Shown: in pieces, positions 121-5,310 of the stretch
Position numbering within the stretch: the stretch's first letter is position 1
How the letters are laid out: each line of letters opens with the position of its first letter
Source of the DNA: Promethearchaeota archaeon
GTDB taxonomy: Archaea > Asgardarchaeota > Odinarchaeia > Odinarchaeales > JBHLKK01
DNA: 5,310 bases
Reading direction: 5' to 3'
Assembly (NCBI GenBank): GCA_048939465.1
Contig: JBHLPL010000121.1
Location: 1 to 5,310, forward strand
Position numbers and translations under genes: made by a program
The notes under the pieces: model-generated
What the model was told of the DNA's origin: nothing
What the model saw: the letters and a program-made list of their open reading frames with translations, nothing else
The model's database searches: none

Positions 121-125
121 GAGGT
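121..125 (+). promoter_or_regulatory. Shine-Dalgarno-like site for tbp
   Basis: GAGGT at 121-125 lies 11 nt before ATG 137 and overlaps the track's TTG at 125, so it favours ATG 137 as the start. Confidence 0.45.
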
Positions 126-136
126 TGAGTTTGATT

Positions 137-697
137 ATGGAAAGTAACAAACGGGATATAAATTATAAGGTAGAAAATGTCGTGGCGTCTGTTACTCTTG
201 AAGATCGCATCGATCTAAACAAACTGGCAGAGAACTGCAGTGAAGCAGAGTATGACCCATCACAATTCCCGGGACTTGTACTGCGATTAAAGGAACCCAA
301 AGCTGCAATCCTTGTTTTTAATACAGGAAAGATGGTCGTAACTGGACTGAGAAGTGAGGAAGATGCCCCTACTGTTGTAGAAAAAATAATTGAGAGAATC
401 AGAGAGGCAGGAATTTCGGTCAAAAGCCAAGCCAAGATTAAGGTTCAGAATATTGTTGCATCAGGAAGCCTTGGAGCTGCACTGGATTTGGAAATCGCTT
501 CAATAACCTTGGAGGATTCCTTATACGAACCAGAGCAGTTTCCGGGATTGATCTACAGAGCAAAGAATCCTAAGGTAGTGTTCCTGCTTTTCAGCTCTGG
601 CAGGATAGTGTGCACCGGAGCAAAGAAGGAAACGGATGTCAAGGAAGCAGTCATGCGGTTAGATCGTAGATTAGAAGAACTGGGAATCTATGCTTGA
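137..697 (+). CDS. tbp: TATA-box-binding protein (archaeal TBP), about 186 aa
   Basis: Two TBP half-repeats: ENVVAS...EYDPSQFPGLVLRLKEPKAAILVFNTGKMVVTG and QNIVAS...YEPEQFPGLIYRAKNPKVVFLLFSSGRIVCTG. All four DNA-intercalating Phe and both core Asn are present. The track starts at TTG 125; the in-frame ATG 137 is preferred from SD position and protein length. Confidence 0.97.
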   Translation: MESNKRDINYKVENVVASVTLEDRIDLNKLAENCSEAEYDPSQFPGLVLRLKEPKAAILVFNTGKMVVTGLRSEEDAPTVVEKIIERIREAGISVKSQAKIKVQNIVASGSLGAALDLEIASITLEDSLYEPEQFPGLIYRAKNPKVVFLLFSSGRIVCTGAKKETDVKEAVMRLDRRLEELGIYA

Positions 698-722
698 CTA
701 CTATGGCTAACTACTATGCTTG
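684..722. repeat. 13-bp imperfect tandem repeat, about 3 copies, at the convergent gene junction
   Basis: 684-696 GAATCTATGCTTG, 697-709 ACTACTATGGCTA, 710-722 ACTACTATGCTTG. The 9-mer CTATGCTTG is exact at 688-696 and 714-722. Confidence 0.85.
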
Positions 723-1256
723 TATTAGTGTTCGTAGCAATCTAAGACGAAAGTAACCTTTTTTCCTAAGCTCGCTCAGATCATCCATTAACTTTATTCT
801 TACATACTCTTGGGGGCTGGGATTTGATACCAACCTGTGATAGCTGGCTTCAAAATCTTCGAAGTCAGAGACCTTCAGAAGCTTCTTCTCCGCAAGATCG
901 GAGATTGTGATCACTACGTCATTCTTCACCTGTCTTCCTTTTGTTAGTTCAAGACTTCTGACTCCATGTTTAGATACAAAGAAAGGAACTCCGGCAGAGT
1001 AGAATTGCATTGATATATTCCCCAGAGCTTTGCTCTTCTCCGCAATATCTGGAGTTTGTAGTGTCTGATCGAGCCATTCAGCAAATGTCTTTTTGGAGGT
1101 TGTAAATTTATGAGATGCAGAACCAGAGACATGAATCTCGGAATCGATCTCTGGCCTAGGTACTTCTCTTAATTCATAAGCAAGTTTGCCGACTTGCTGC
1201 TCAACTTTCTCGTCAGGTTCGTTCTCTTTCTTCCTTCTAAACCAACCTAAAGGCAT
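714..1256 (-). CDS. Hypothetical protein, about 180 aa, with a putative SCP2-like (sterol carrier protein 2 fold) lipid-binding domain and a basic/aromatic N-terminus
   Basis: The ORF is well supported: SD AGGTGAT (1267-1261) lies 4 nt before ATG 1256, the track's GTG 1265 is part of that SD, and the stop is TAG TAG. Segment FAEWLDQTLQ...ISMQFY...PFFVSK...LELTKGRQVKNDVVITISDLAEKKLL follows the SCP2 helix-strand-strand-strand-G-x-D-x-x-I-T/S-helix pattern. The fold call is by eye only (about 0.55). Confidence 0.8.
   Translation of the reverse strand: MPLGWFRRKKENEPDEKVEQQVGKLAYELREVPRPEIDSEIHVSGSASHKFTTSKKTFAEWLDQTLQTPDIAEKSKALGNISMQFYSAGVPFFVSKHGVRSLELTKGRQVKNDVVITISDLAEKKLLKVSDFEDFEASYHRLVSNPSPQEYVRIKLMDDLSELRKKGYFRLRLLRTLIQA
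757..767 (+). terminator. Candidate oligo(dT) terminator for tbp
   Basis: CCTTTTTTCCT (T6 at 759-764) is the first long T-run after the tbp stop, about 60 nt downstream. It may simply be the antisense of the RKKG codons of the convergent gene. Confidence 0.3.
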
Positions 1257-1260
1257 TAAA

Positions 1261-1267
1261 ATCACCT
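1261..1267 (-). promoter_or_regulatory. Shine-Dalgarno site
   Basis: AGGTGAT on the minus strand is a strong match to the archaeal anti-SD complement, 4 nt before ATG 1256. Confidence 0.75.
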
Positions 1268-1348
1268 TAATTTAATATGAACCCTTTTATTCCTATTAAT
1301 CCTATCGGAAATGATTGAATTTGGGAGGGGGTTAAAAGCAGTCTGCAG

Positions 1349-2968
1349 CTACTGTCTCTTTCCATATGTTTTTTCCAGCACTTCCTCTTCCGAAGTAGGC
1401 ATGCTGCTAAAGCGTTCATAGAAAATCCGTGAAAGAGCTGTAAGAAATGAGCTCTTGCCGCTTATCTCCCTTTCCTTTAGGCTGAGGAAAAGTTTCAGGA
1501 GTCTGGTAAGAAGTAGAATTCCAAGCCTTGAACCGAGCGAGTGTTGCTCGGTAGTTAAGCTGTACAGCGGGTCTATGTGGAGCACGTTGTGCTTCCAACA
1601 GGCTAGAAGAAGCTCCCATTGTTTCTTGCTCATGTAGTTTGCGATAAAAGCTTTTGCACGCTTTAATGTACATTGTTCCATGGGAACGAAGAATAAGGGC
1701 ACAAATAAGGAGGGATAGGGTCGCAAATCCCTTATCAGATCGATTGTTTCTTCCACGTCTTCCTCTTCTTCCCCAGGAAGACCCAGCATTAGAGTACTTA
1801 CGGTAACCCACCGATTTTCAGTCATTATACGCATGGCAGTCTTCACTATCTCAGGCCATTCATCGGCACTATAGGGCTTCGGCTTTCCGACCATGAGCTT
1901 TCCAATAAGCCTAGAACTTCCGGTTTCGATACCGGGCTGACAGCCGTAATATCGGTGTCCATGTTTTCTTAGGAGCTTCGTTAGCTTCTCGATGATCTCT
2001 GGTTGATAAGCAATAGGGGCCAGTGTCGAATGAGTTATGTAGACCTCTTTTGCTCCTGCCTCAAAAGCTGATTTGTATAGGTTGATTAAGGCATCCTCAT
2101 CTATCAAAAAACCATTGGACCCATATCTGAGCGCATCATCCGACTGGAGCGTTATGGCCTTAATTCCTGATTCCACGTGGACCTTAATATCCGGAATTAT
2201 CTTCTCCTCCAGAGGCAACATTCTCATTTTTCCGCTGGTTGCTGGAACGCAGAATCTGCACCCTCTTCCACACCCACGTGATATCTCAACAAGGCCAAAA
2301 ATAGAGGGGCCAAGTATCGGAGGTATCTCCTCAGGCCGAGCATTGGGACCATCAATCACCCTTTCCGAAGGAGTTTTGCCTTTCAGGAGGTCGCCAAAGA
2401 GGGTTGGTATTGTTCGTTCTCCCTCACCCCTTACTATATGGTCTATCCCCAGCTTATCGATAAGACCGGCGAGGCTAACCTGCCAAGACCCAGAACCTCC
2501 AAGAACCACTTTGAATCCGTATTTTTCTTTGAGTTGTTTTACACGTCTGAGCATTAGTCGTAGAAACTCTGCACGAGTATGAGGTATTCCTGAGAAAATA
2601 GTGCTCCAAGTAGTCGTGGATGGACCCAAACCTAGAGGATCCATTGCGGAAACTCCTACGATTTTAGTATTCCTCCCCACATGTTCTTCCAGATAATCCG
2701 GATGCACCACCTTTAGGCTTTTTCTTGGCACCACACCGCTGCTTACAAGAATTGCCTCAACAGTCCTTAGAGAAGGCGTGGCCAAAGCTACGCTCCCGTC
2801 AAGAGAAACATCCACAGGAGGACATAGAAGACTGAAATACAGGATGTCAGGACATACATTCGTAGGAAGGGAAGCTGCTAATCCCATATATAGGTTATTT
2901 CCATAAGTCGTAAGAAGCGTTTTGTCTGAAGTTAATACCACCTCAGTTCCATCGCGATTATTTCCCAT
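1349..2968 (-). CDS. Radical SAM enzyme with B12-binding-like N-terminal domain (COG1032-type; Grs/Gms-like archaeal group), about 539 aa
   Basis: CX3CX2C motif EISRGCGRGCRFC (Cys codons 2272-2249), VVLGGSGSWQ Rossmann strand, GIETGS and LMLGLPGE barrel motifs. N-terminal motifs VVLTSDKTLLTTY, SLRTVEAIL, HPDYL and DPLGLGP resemble those I recall from the GDGT ring synthase / GMGT synthase family. The track starts at GTG 2974; ATG 2968 is preferred because SD GAGGGAG (2980-2974) sits 5 nt upstream. The radical SAM call is high confidence; the lipid substrate is inference. Confidence 0.92.
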   Translation of the reverse strand: MGNNRDGTEVVLTSDKTLLTTYGNNLYMGLAASLPTNVCPDILYFSLLCPPVDVSLDGSVALATPSLRTVEAILVSSGVVPRKSLKVVHPDYLEEHVGRNTKIVGVSAMDPLGLGPSTTTWSTIFSGIPHTRAEFLRLMLRRVKQLKEKYGFKVVLGGSGSWQVSLAGLIDKLGIDHIVRGEGERTIPTLFGDLLKGKTPSERVIDGPNARPEEIPPILGPSIFGLVEISRGCGRGCRFCVPATSGKMRMLPLEEKIIPDIKVHVESGIKAITLQSDDALRYGSNGFLIDEDALINLYKSAFEAGAKEVYITHSTLAPIAYQPEIIEKLTKLLRKHGHRYYGCQPGIETGSSRLIGKLMVGKPKPYSADEWPEIVKTAMRIMTENRWVTVSTLMLGLPGEEEEDVEETIDLIRDLRPYPSLFVPLFFVPMEQCTLKRAKAFIANYMSKKQWELLLACWKHNVLHIDPLYSLTTEQHSLGSRLGILLLTRLLKLFLSLKEREISGKSSFLTALSRIFYERFSSMPTSEEEVLEKTYGKRQ

Positions 2969-3081: not shown

Positions 3082-3837
3082 TCAGCATGTAGATTCTTTA
3101 GAGCCCACAGAAGCAGGGAAGGAGAGAATTTTAGTCTGCGGAACTTCCTCCCATTCGCCTTCCTCTGAAGAAGATTCATCGGCAGCAGTCTCGCCTGTCT
3201 CCTGTGTACCCTTGATCTTTCCAGCTCTCTTATCGATTACTTTCCTGCTTATGTAGCCGCCTAGCCCTCCAAGTACGATGGCAATCACCAGGTTGATTAT
3301 CATTCTTACAGCGACGACCTCAATTATAAGATTGATCAGCATCGAAAAGTAAAAGGAACCTCCGCCCATCATCATGTTTATTATGAAATCCATCAAGTCT
3401 CCGATTACCGGAATGCTAAATATTGCGAAGATGTCGATACCTGGTGGGGGGCTCATAGCCAAACTCTGCAATTGACTCATTACGGCGGGATCAATTTCCC
3501 AGGTAGAAAAATTAAGAAACGTTGATAGCATAACTAGTCCAAACGCGATCAATAAGAGAAACATTGTGGAGAAGATCGAAAATCCCACAACTATCCCACC
3601 CTTTCCTCTTGCTGCAATCAAACCACCAAAAAAACAAGAACTTGCCCAAATTGCGATATGGATAATATCCGAGTAGTCCCCTAATAGGTTGTAGAAAGCG
3701 GCTATAATGGGCCTCAGGGGATAGCCCAGTACTGGACCAAACCATGCGATTATCATTTCATATCCCAGTGGGAGAATGGTATATGCTATGCCGAAGGCGA
3801 TCAAGCTTCCTCCCAGCCAACCCAAGAACTTACTCAT
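3082..3837 (-). CDS. Hypothetical polytopic membrane protein (about 4-6 hydrophobic segments) with basic then acidic C-terminal tail, 251 aa
   Basis: ATG start with SD AGGAGAG (3851-3845) 7 nt upstream. Hydrophobic segments: FLGWLGGSLIAFGIAYTILPL, IIHIAIWASSCFFGGLIAA, IVVGFSIFSTMFLLLIAFGLVMLSTFL, IDIFAIFSIPVIG and MIINLVIAIVLGGLGGYIS. These are followed by RKVIDKRAGKIK and ETGETAADESSSEEGEWEE. Confidence 0.9.
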   Translation of the reverse strand: MSKFLGWLGGSLIAFGIAYTILPLGYEMIIAWFGPVLGYPLRPIIAAFYNLLGDYSDIIHIAIWASSCFFGGLIAARGKGGIVVGFSIFSTMFLLLIAFGLVMLSTFLNFSTWEIDPAVMSQLQSLAMSPPPGIDIFAIFSIPVIGDLMDFIINMMMGGGSFYFSMLINLIIEVVAVRMIINLVIAIVLGGLGGYISRKVIDKRAGKIKGTQETGETAADESSSEEGEWEEVPQTKILSFPASVGSKESTC

Positions 3838-3950: not shown

Positions 3951-3987
3951 ACATAGTTGCATAAAATATGTTGATCATTGAATTCTT

Positions 3988-3995
3988 GTGAGGGG
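3988..3995 (+). promoter_or_regulatory. Shine-Dalgarno-like site
   Basis: GTGAGGGG lies 3 nt before GTG 3999 and 6 nt before TTG 4002. Confidence 0.55.
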
Positions 3996-3998
3996 AAT

Positions 3999-5310
3999 GT
4001 GTTGGTTAAGCCGAAACCCAAGACTCTTACAATTGGCTTTATTCTGATACTGGGTCTGCTGGGCTTGCTTACAGCTCAAACTGGAGTATCGCAGACGAAT
4101 GGATCTTCTCCTCATTCTGAAATGGCGTATTTTGCAGTAAGCGGTGACGGAACAGTAACTGGCGGAGTGATAGTCAATGGTACAGATCTCATTCCTGGAA
4201 TTACTTCGAGCTCTCTGGAGGTTCAAAATCTTGTGGCTGCAGCTCTCATTTACTGGGACGGAGATACACCGCCAATACCCGCTGAGCTGTTGAATGAACT
4301 TACGGGAGGGGGAAATGGGAACGGAAGCGACGCAGATGGATTTGGCTCTTTTGGGGACATCGAAGAGCTTCTGAATCTAATTCCCAATCGGATGTTCGTC
4401 ACAGCTTATCCTTCAGATCTTAGCTTACCATCAATTCAATCATATTCTCAGAATCTGGCTGATGACTTTGGCTCAGCTTTTGGGCTGACGTTGACAAAAG
4501 CAAGCGAAATCAACCTGACAATCCCTGAGATGTTCGGAATATACATAACAGAGTATACCTATGTATCCTCGAGTGTTCCGTCTGGCATTCTGACAACGCT
4601 GAGTGGTCTAGGTGGCCTTGCTGAAGTATTTTCATCAGTAACTGATGCCCACTCCACAGCGTATGGAGCTGGCATTATTGGACAAGCACTTGAACCGTTT
4701 TTGAACATAAGTGGGAGCGGTTTTGAGGAGATTTTTGGGCAATCATTTGTCGTGGCCGCGGGAAGATGGGACTTTTATCTGGCCAGCGCAGGGAGTCACA
4801 ATCTCTCAATCAGTGAGCTCGCAGGGCATGTGGGGACTGTTTCATGGGGAACAGACGTAGACACAGCAATGCTCAATGTGATTTTTCCAACTGGAACTAG
4901 CATAACCGATTACTATCCATCAAATATGTCCATGGGTTACGATCCGCCCAACGTCGGCGGAGGGTTCTCAGCAGGCGAGTCATATTCAGATATCTGGATT
5001 CAATTCAACTACACTTTTCCACTGAATCTGTCTGTAACTCGAACCCTAACCATTAATGGGACGCCAGTGACCGATGATTCAATACCTTTAGGAACGCCGA
5101 TAGGAGTAACCATAGAAGTACGGAATCTGGAAGCCAATGAAACCGCCTCCAATGTTGCTCTTGACGACTTTGCTTTCTTTGACAAGTATCCTATGGTTGA
5201 TTATCTGGGTGGGGACCTTGATCCCGGCTACACACTTAGCATAGGCACACTTACCCCTGGACAGAGTGTTACCGTTGATTATGCAATTCGATTCAATGAG
5301 GAAGGAATTT
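3999..5310 (+). CDS. Secreted cell-surface / S-layer-like glycoprotein with DUF11/CARDB-like Ig domain (3' partial, at least 437 codons; absent from the ORF track)
   Basis: I translated every codon from GTG 3999 to 5309 and found no stop; the nearest in-frame upstream stop is TGA 3972. The start is GTG 3999 or TTG 4002. Sec-type signal peptide (M)LVKPKPKT-LTIGFILILGLLGLL-TAQTGVS. There are 11 N-x-S/T sequons, only 2 Lys and 5 Arg after the signal peptide, and no Cys. The end region LSVTRT...LGTPIGVTIEVRN...ETASNVALDD...GTLTPGQSVTVDYAIRFNEEGI follows the DUF11/CARDB-like pattern. Confidence 0.9.
   Translation, partial: MLVKPKPKTLTIGFILILGLLGLLTAQTGVSQTNGSSPHSEMAYFAVSGDGTVTGGVIVNGTDLIPGITSSSLEVQNLVAAALIYWDGDTPPIPAELLNELTGGGNGNGSDADGFGSFGDIEELLNLIPNRMFVTAYPSDLSLPSIQSYSQNLADDFGSAFGLTLTKASEINLTIPEMFGIYITEYTYVSSSVPSGILTTLSGLGGLAEVFSSVTDAHSTAYGAGIIGQALEPFLNISGSGFEEIFGQSFVVAAGRWDFYLASAGSHNLSISELAGHVGTVSWGTDVDTAMLNVIFPTGTSITDYYPSNMSMGYDPPNVGGGFSAGESYSDIWIQFNYTFPLNLSVTRTLTINGTPVTDDSIPLGTPIGVTIEVRNLEANETASNVALDDFAFFDKYPMVDYLGGDLDPGYTLSIGTLTPGQSVTVDYAIRFNEEGI

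Follow-up and report, generated by a model that had tools for sequence, protein, structure and literature searches.

GrsA (Saci_1585) and GrsB (Saci_0240) of Sulfolobus acidocaldarius are reportedly the ring synthases of the glycerol dialkyl glycerol tetraether (GDGT) lipids, as described by Zeng and colleagues in 2019. The B12-type radical S-adenosylmethionine (SAM) enzymes Cgm, Gmm, and Ted, which are GDGT methylases and a desaturase, and the radical SAM enzyme Tes also act on archaeal tetraether lipids. UbiJ and UbiT, two small accessory proteins of the SCP2 fold in bacterial ubiquinone biosynthesis, occur together with ubi genes and are linked to them in many taxa. GrsA and GrsB have been reviewed (PMC13459092), and all characterized members of the Grs family use tetraether chains as substrates (PMC13459092; bioRxiv 10.1101/2025.10.20.683597). 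In the 5310-base window analyzed here, which is a whole contig (C72) of an Asgard archaeal genome (G000; 1.96 Mb, 91% complete), a gene for a Grs-family radical SAM enzyme is followed on the same strand by a gene for a small SCP2-like protein. Close database relatives of the window proteins are labelled Odinarchaeia or Hodarchaeota. The initial annotation of this DNA proposed that the two genes form a dedicated system, in which the small protein carries lipid for the enzyme. As far as gene order and gene content can tell, the comparative evidence presented below argues against a general carrier system of this kind.

Distribution of the Gene Pair

The enzyme gene lies on the minus strand, at positions 1349–2974 with a GTG start (541 residues) or at positions 1349–2968 with an ATG start (539 residues), and the ATG start at position 2968 agrees with the database entry for the enzyme (P0007). 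The SCP2-like gene occupies positions 714–1256 of the same strand and encodes 180 residues, beginning with MPLGWFRRKK as in all close homologues. Both reading frames are intact, and their products align with homologues over the full length. The order, the common strand, and the 92-nucleotide spacer (1257–1348) that had been annotated were confirmed from the open reading frames (ORFs). On the other side of the SCP2-like gene lies a convergent gene for the TATA-binding protein (TBP; 125–697, plus strand; PF00352, E 1e-58), and 16 nucleotides separate the two stop codons.

It was found that the adjacency of the enzyme gene and the SCP2-like gene is limited to the window genome, two further genomes (G298, the source of locus L002, and G299), and a short contig (L003), which together represent one genus. 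The small proteins of the latter three are 67–82% identical to that of the window. Synteny of the enzyme gene with the TBP gene was found in L002, L004, L005, and L006, and TBP is a conserved neighbor of the enzyme gene in this order of archaea. At the nearest orthologous enzyme (69% identity; L004 and L005), the convergent TBP gene comes directly after the enzyme gene and the slot between them is empty. In L006 and in the complete genome G303, whose enzymes are 60–63% identical to that of the window, the slot is occupied by a gene for a flavodoxin of 159 residues (PF12682, E 1.2e-10; L006:6637–7116, plus strand; L119:2380–2859, minus strand). Within the sister family, the arrangement of enzyme and TBP genes is retained, with a flavodoxin gene or nothing in the slot. 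The window genome has a homologue of this flavodoxin (45% identity) on another contig (C3:4287–4739). More distant orthologues of the enzyme (L007 and L008) have unrelated neighbors. The most economical explanation of these gene orders would be that the slot between the enzyme and TBP genes is variable in this order, being empty, filled with a flavodoxin gene, or filled with an SCP2-like gene. The possibility that the small protein is itself a diverged flavodoxin was rejected, because it has no sequence similarity to the slot flavodoxin and has a different fold.

A profile search of 400 Asgard genomes detected the SCP2-like family in 132 of them, almost always as one full-length copy. The gene is absent from all four genomes of the sister family f2, which are 93–98% complete and in which family orthologous enzymes (62–63% identity) occur, as well as from all five genomes of family f28, where an enzyme orthologue is present. 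In families f31 to f33, the small protein was found in 84 of 89 genomes and a Grs-family match in five of the 89. About 110 of the 132 SCP2-positive genomes have no close orthologue of the enzyme. Where genomes of families f14 and f31 have both genes, these lie on different contigs, and complete genomes with paralogues of the enzyme have 0.5–2 Mb between the two genes. A complex prediction, for which the enzyme and the small protein were supplied as alignments (score 0.00; mark 0.32), weighs neither way on binding. Thus, by gene neighborhood and co-occurrence, the two genes are linked in one genus only. The initial annotation had itself named a lack of linkage in other genomes as the outcome that speaks against a dedicated system, so its proposal is not supported on its own terms.

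Genomic Context of the SCP2-Like Gene

Does the SCP2-like gene have a neighborhood of its own? Segments of 14.5 kb around the gene were cut from 20 genomes of seven families and their ORFs were clustered. In 15 of the 20 loci, representing three families, the next gene downstream on the same strand was revealed to be a triose-phosphate isomerase (TPI) gene (PF00121, E 9e-45), and TPI lies within 1.4 kb in 18 of the 20. The gaps between the SCP2-like and TPI genes are about 6–130 nucleotides, with one of 263 nucleotides. In the 15 loci, TPI is followed by a gene for an ARMT1/DUF89 damage-control phosphatase. A fructose-1,6-bisphosphate (FBP) aldolase/phosphatase gene (PF01950, E 8e-172) lies upstream in 16 of the 20 loci, and a gene for a small ribbon-helix-helix (RHH) protein is often found between it and the SCP2-like gene. 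Genes for ABCE1, a DeoC-type aldolase, NIF3, and a member of the purine-nucleoside-phosphorylase family also occur near the SCP2-like loci. No Grs-like gene was found within 7 kb of the SCP2-like gene in any of these 20 diverse loci.

Since linkage to the enzyme gene is absent outside the genus and the small gene has a TPI and FBP aldolase/phosphatase context of its own, the two are probably independent genes that are neighbors in one genus, and not a dedicated system. A local rearrangement would have brought them together by placing the SCP2-like gene into the variable slot that the enzyme gene borders on one side and the convergent TBP gene on the other. The link with TPI itself invites speculation; it might reflect the provision of dihydroxyacetone phosphate toward the glycerol-1-phosphate backbone, or the small protein might act in sensing alongside the RHH protein.

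The cluster, which is represented by L042:5049–10207 and 19 other loci (L043 to L061), runs in the order FBP aldolase/phosphatase, RHH protein where present, SCP2-like protein, TPI, ARMT1/DUF89, and NIF3. The only TPI gene detected in the window genome (C138:1–405) is cut by the end of its contig on the side of the preceding gene. It is followed by an unrelated ORF of 380 residues on the opposite strand, and not by an ARMT1-like gene.

Predicted Fold of the Small Protein

The description of the small protein as SCP2-like in the initial annotation is right at the level of the fold, being borne out by predicted structures and by no sequence profile. An exhaustive HMMER search yielded 20 cluster representatives of the family, on which an alignment (A1) was based. 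A1 has a conserved N-terminal motif, an acidic low-complexity linker of variable length, and a conserved domain of about 125 residues. In the window protein, these parts correspond to a basic-aromatic motif (WFRRKK), an acidic disordered linker (about residues 12–50), and the SCP2-like domain (residues 55–180). The structure predicted with AlphaFold2 from the family alignment has pLDDT values above 90 at residues 55–180, and its elements are arranged in the order alpha-alpha-beta4-alpha-alpha-beta-alpha-alpha. The SCP2 fold was defined as an alpha/beta fold with N-terminal helices, a five-stranded sheet, and C-terminal helices that enclose a tunnel, and the model conforms to this definition.

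The 15 best Foldseek matches of the model are all SCP2 domains, including AF1534, alkylsulfatase C-terminal domains, UbiJ, and the Thermus protein TT1886; at lower ranks, eukaryotic SCP2 proteins are interleaved with the SCP2-like auxiliary domains of the methyltransferases MycE and SpnK. VIA re-alignment gave a Z-score of 9.6 and a root-mean-square deviation (rmsd) of 2.9 Å over 99 of the 110 residues of AF1534, and its first 20 rows were again all SCP2 domains. The ESM Atlas holds its own model of the small protein, which independently matched SCP2 (PF02036) clusters by structure. On the other hand, Pfam, NCBIfam, and PDB sequence searches with the small protein gave no informative match, 25 family members searched against Pfam at E 0.1 gave no SCP2 match, and the family profile found no SCP2 protein among the PDB sequences. 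Weak matches to Rsa3 and eS8 were rejected as the identity of the small protein; they arise from low-complexity K/E-rich or C-terminal basic stretches. I infer from the modelled fold that the small protein, whose family is confined to Asgard archaea at the sequence level, would bind a hydrophobic ligand in its SCP2 domain.

The best structural match is AF1534 of Archaeoglobus fulgidus (PDB 3BN8 and 3CNU; Z-scores of 9.3–9.6 and rmsd of 2.9–3.2 Å over 99–101 of 110 residues). AF1534 is also a stand-alone archaeal putative SCP2 protein, whose function is likewise not assigned, but the two proteins are only 12–13% identical and AF1534 has neither the basic-aromatic N-terminus nor the acidic linker. 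UbiJ and UbiT (PDB 6H6N, 6H6O, and 6H6P) have the SCP2 fold in common with the small protein (Foldseek E 1e-3; VIA Z-scores of 5.2–6.4) and offer a parallel in concept, namely a small lipid-binding protein encoded beside isoprenoid-acting enzymes. However, they have no sequence similarity to the small protein, and AF1534 and the alkylsulfatase C-terminal domains are closer to it in structure. Unlike the linkage of UbiJ and UbiT with ubi genes, the linkage of the small gene with an enzyme gene is confined to one genus.

The N-terminal motif (M..WFRRKK, also LFGRKK; residues 1–12, encoded at 1220–1256 on the minus strand) may be a membrane-docking or partner-binding element, and with this polybasic-aromatic N-terminus the small protein may dock on anionic membranes. 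The acidic linker ranges from about 20 to more than 150 residues across the family. Candidate lipid-transfer proteins of Asgard archaea have been reported in a preprint, including the START-domain protein StarAsg1 and "one SCP-2 homolog" in P. syntrophicum MK-D1 (PMC12139934). They are likewise small eukaryote-type lipid-transfer folds, and a polybasic surface or motif was proposed for their docking on anionic membranes. Only START proteins were characterized in that work; the SCP-2 homologue was named and not studied (PMC12139934).

I also found that many Asgard genomes encode HdrD/GlpC-like iron-sulfur proteins of about 541 residues with two CCG domains and a 4Fe-4S dicluster domain, whose C-terminal domain is homologous to the SCP2-like family (profile E 1e-8 to 1e-11). 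Profile matches of this type are L039:1728–3353 and L040:1772–3397 on the minus strand and L041:600–2231 on the plus strand, and the Atlas structure search pairs the window protein with a cluster of CCG proteins. The C-terminal domain may provide these redox enzymes with a module for carrying lipophilic molecules or for membrane binding.

It is possible, if rather unlikely, that the genes are independent but that the SCP2-fold domain is no lipid carrier at all, being instead a ligand-sensing or protein-interaction module of triose-phosphate and gluconeogenic metabolism that works, for example, with the RHH protein or TPI. Its tight placement between the FBP aldolase/phosphatase or RHH gene and the TPI gene, conserved in three families, would suit such a role, and SCP2 folds are also found fused to regulators of the HxlR type and as auxiliary domains without a lipid role in MycE, SpnK, and Eis. 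In addition, the invariant residues of A1 (K96, D113, and G167) are polar or small and do not make a purely hydrophobic lining. However, the strongest structural matches, namely AF1534, the alkylsulfatase C-terminal domain, SCP2, and UbiJ, bind lipid or alkyl chains. The small protein has no DNA-binding or catalytic motif, and the RHH neighbor occurs in two families only.

The Grs-Family Radical SAM Enzyme

The annotation of the large protein as a radical SAM enzyme was supported by a PF04055 match (E 1e-12) and by a CX3CX2C motif (C235, C239, and C242) that is invariant in the alignment. The Pfam match to the B12-binding domain is weak (E 0.024) and by itself does not establish cobalamin binding; since this model misses Grs-type N-domains even in Sulfolobaceae, the weak score is uninformative here. 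The NCBIfam matches to TIGR04013 and MiaB-like models are below threshold, the same weak pattern as that of the inferred GrsA and GrsB described below. The AlphaFold2 model (pLDDT 89, pTM 0.89) has a Rossmann-like N-domain, a radical SAM barrel, and four C-terminal helices (residues 450–537), and its top structural matches are class-B radical SAM enzymes, among them QCMT, TsrM, TokK, and OxsB, together with MiaB/RimO. An N-domain, a radical SAM barrel, and C-terminal helices make up the architecture described for Grs proteins (PMC13459092). The best PDB sequence match is 9CCB, the glutamine methylase of methyl-coenzyme M reductase (PMC12931638).

Genomes of Sulfolobales were reached with a degenerate DNA pattern designed on the Sac7d/Sso7d protein. 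Of 47 Sulfolobaceae genomes, 46 encode one to three homologues of the window enzyme (E 1e-62 to 1e-79). One of these genomes (G439) has 18 radical SAM genes, and its protein of 584 residues, encoded at 0.5616 Mb, is Tes-like, matching the Tes structure of M. jannaschii (PDB 7TOL) at E 1.2e-135. This served as a positive control for the window enzyme, which gave no PDB sequence match to 7TOL at E 0.01 or better. The large radical SAM genes at 0.1995, 0.5616, 1.354, and 1.5517 Mb presumably correspond to Saci_0240 (GrsB), Saci_0703 (Tes), Saci_1585 (GrsA), and Saci_1785 (Cgm), with whose locus numbers their positions scale. Based on the number of radical SAM genes, the Tes match, and this scaling with locus tags, G439 is probably S. 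acidocaldarius DSM 639.

The window enzyme is 34% identical to the inferred GrsA over 462 colinear residues (E 2e-76) and 31% identical to the inferred GrsB (E 1.3e-72). A search of the same genome with the enzyme gave two Grs-family proteins at E 1.3e-72 and 4.8e-69. Overall, the enzyme resembles GrsA and GrsB in size (about 500–540 residues), domain order, and the CX3CX2C motif, with 31–36% identity over about 450 residues (E about 1e-70). In contrast, its similarity to the inferred Cgm covers the radical SAM core alone (25% over 198 residues, E 3e-7). In a maximum-likelihood tree of 75 family proteins, the window enzyme falls into an Asgard-dominated clade of 21 rows (SH-aLRT 95), unlike GrsA and GrsB; the tree is rooted on a long outgroup branch, which leaves the order of the clades unsure. 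This clade is separate from both the GrsB clade and the GrsA clade, so the tree gives no orthology with either protein. The GrsA clade holds a different paralogue from family f2, a sister family with Odinarchaeia-labelled relatives. Thus, the full-length similarity and the separate clade define the enzyme, by sequence comparison, as a Grs-family paralogue whose specificity is not assigned, and which is of neither the Tes nor the Cgm type.

The initial annotation had considered both GrsA/GrsB and Gms as models for the enzyme. The former was upheld at family level by the full-length similarity and the class-B architecture; the latter was not, since the published description of Gms does not fit a class-B enzyme. 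Gms is a radical SAM enzyme with three [4Fe-4S] clusters and a COG4001 domain, and it is not described as B12-binding (PMC11214058, PMC13459092). The window enzyme is colinear with GrsA over residues 11–464 and then continues into the C-terminal helices, which leaves little room for an extra domain. The placement relative to Gms, Gmm, and Ted is that given by the Cgm comparison and published identities.

A second Grs-family paralogue is encoded in the window genome (C23:21515–22897; L095:1013–2584). It is 40% identical to the window enzyme, has a B12-binding match at E 5.5e-4, and groups with sequences of Bathyarchaeia. In the 91% complete window genome, a search at E 1e-60 or better found nothing that belongs to the GrsA clade, whereas the f2 genome G303 has three paralogues.

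By analogy with characterized Grs proteins, the enzyme would act on the isoprenoid chains of membrane tetraether lipids. Reductive cleavage of SAM at the [4Fe-4S]/SAM site would give a 5′-deoxyadenosyl radical, which would abstract a hydrogen atom from an unactivated isoprenoid chain carbon of the lipid and so lead to ring closure or a related modification of the chain. The C-terminal helices may contact the membrane or the lipid. Since in the sister family the flavodoxin gene comes right after that of the orthologous enzyme, a flavodoxin is a plausible electron donor and probably provides the reducing equivalents.

An enzyme that does not modify lipids, that is, a Grs-family paralogue acting on a cofactor, a protein, or RNA, seems unlikely. 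The Asgard subclade does stand apart from both characterized Grs clades, no gene of lipid biosynthesis lies beside the enzyme gene in any locus examined, and, among solved structures, a protein methylase and tRNA methylthiotransferases come nearest to the enzyme. However, the similarity to GrsA and GrsB spans the N-domain and the core, extending well beyond the core in common with MiaB or QCMT, and the substrates of all characterized members of the family, as noted above, are tetraether chains.

The Spacer and the Case for a Possible Partnership

The spacer contains the T4 run (1337–1334), the C-rich tract (1331–1323), and the TATA-like ATTAATA (1300–1294) that had been pointed out at the outset. 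It also has a Shine–Dalgarno-like GGTGAT motif (1266–1261) located 4 nucleotides before the ATG of the small gene. Among five close relatives the spacer is 87% conserved, about as well as the adjoining coding sequence of the small gene or even better. The blocks that do not vary are TTCCGATAG, TTAATAG, and TTCATATTAA..TTAAGGTGATTTT, and the GGTGAT region is invariant too. About 25 nucleotides after the TATA-like TTAATAG, an invariant block ends in the Shine–Dalgarno-like motif and the ATG. Judging from this pattern, the TATA-like element and the downstream block would fit an internal promoter for the small gene, while the Shine–Dalgarno-like motif would also fit an internal gene of an operon. 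A scan for sigma-70 promoters and intrinsic terminators gave nothing above shuffled expectation, with models that are not applicable to archaea.

Several points weigh against the independence of the two genes. Since they lie on the same strand and are separated by a short, highly conserved spacer with a Shine–Dalgarno-like motif, co-transcription is possible within the genus. SCP2 is a fold known to present isoprenoid substrates, and UbiJ is among the structural matches. That the slot holds the SCP2-like gene in place of the gene for a flavodoxin, a plausible partner of the enzyme, could mean recruitment and not chance. A lineage-specific partnership is compatible with the lack of linkage elsewhere, and the gluconeogenic neighborhood of the small gene in other families suggests no obvious role for a lipid binder.

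These points would suit a carrier restricted to the genus, in which the SCP2-fold protein was recruited as a dedicated partner that extracts or presents lipid and is co-transcribed with the enzyme gene in place of the flavodoxin gene. The arrangement and its spacer are kept across the genus, the SCP2 fold appears to be a true one, and the enzyme truly belongs to the Grs family. Nevertheless, I regard this as quite improbable. The linkage is limited to close relatives and can be explained by descent alone; orthologous enzymes occur without the small protein in f2, f28, and the genome G128; the conserved context of the small family is that of TPI and FBP aldolase/phosphatase; and the invariant TATA-like element suggests that the small gene may have a promoter of its own. 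Also quite improbable is that, in this one Odinarchaeia-related genus, an Asgard-only SCP2-fold protein was captured into a Grs-like transcription unit, displaced the flavodoxin, and now extracts or presents tetraether lipid.

Other Genes in the Window

A gene for a multi-pass membrane protein of 251 residues lies on the minus strand at positions 3082–3837, 107 nucleotides upstream of the radical SAM gene. The protein is rich in glycine and hydrophobic residues, has an acidic C-terminal tail, and belongs to no known family, the family search of the window proteins having given no match for it. Only within the genus of the window (the window and L002:5417–6166) does its gene precede that of the enzyme on the same strand, and it is not at the orthologous enzyme in L004, L006, L007, or L008. 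At the other end of the window, the start of a secreted or surface protein is encoded on the plus strand (3978–5309) and is cut by the end of the contig. This protein has a signal-anchor-like N-terminus, a Gly/Asn-rich region, and a weak match to DUF11 (E 0.011).

Implications

If a dedicated carrier for Grs-type enzymes existed, it would help to explain how soluble or peripheral radical SAM enzymes gain access to C–H bonds buried in a monolayer membrane. A carrier at the level of one genus, if true, would be the first accessory carrier described for the tailoring of archaeal membrane lipids. With the two genes read as independent neighbors, as preferred here, each has its own significance. 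The enzyme represents an Asgard-dominated Grs subclade whose product is unassigned, which is relevant to the reading of GDGT biomarkers and to the membrane biology of Asgard archaea. The small protein represents a widespread family of predicted SCP2 fold, confined to Asgard archaea at the sequence level and missed by sequence profiles, with a membrane-docking-like N-terminus and a puzzling position next to TPI. For work on lipid-transfer-type proteins among archaea related to eukaryotes, the SCP2-like family and its HdrD/GlpC-like fusions offer candidates, and the Grs subclade is likewise a candidate lead.

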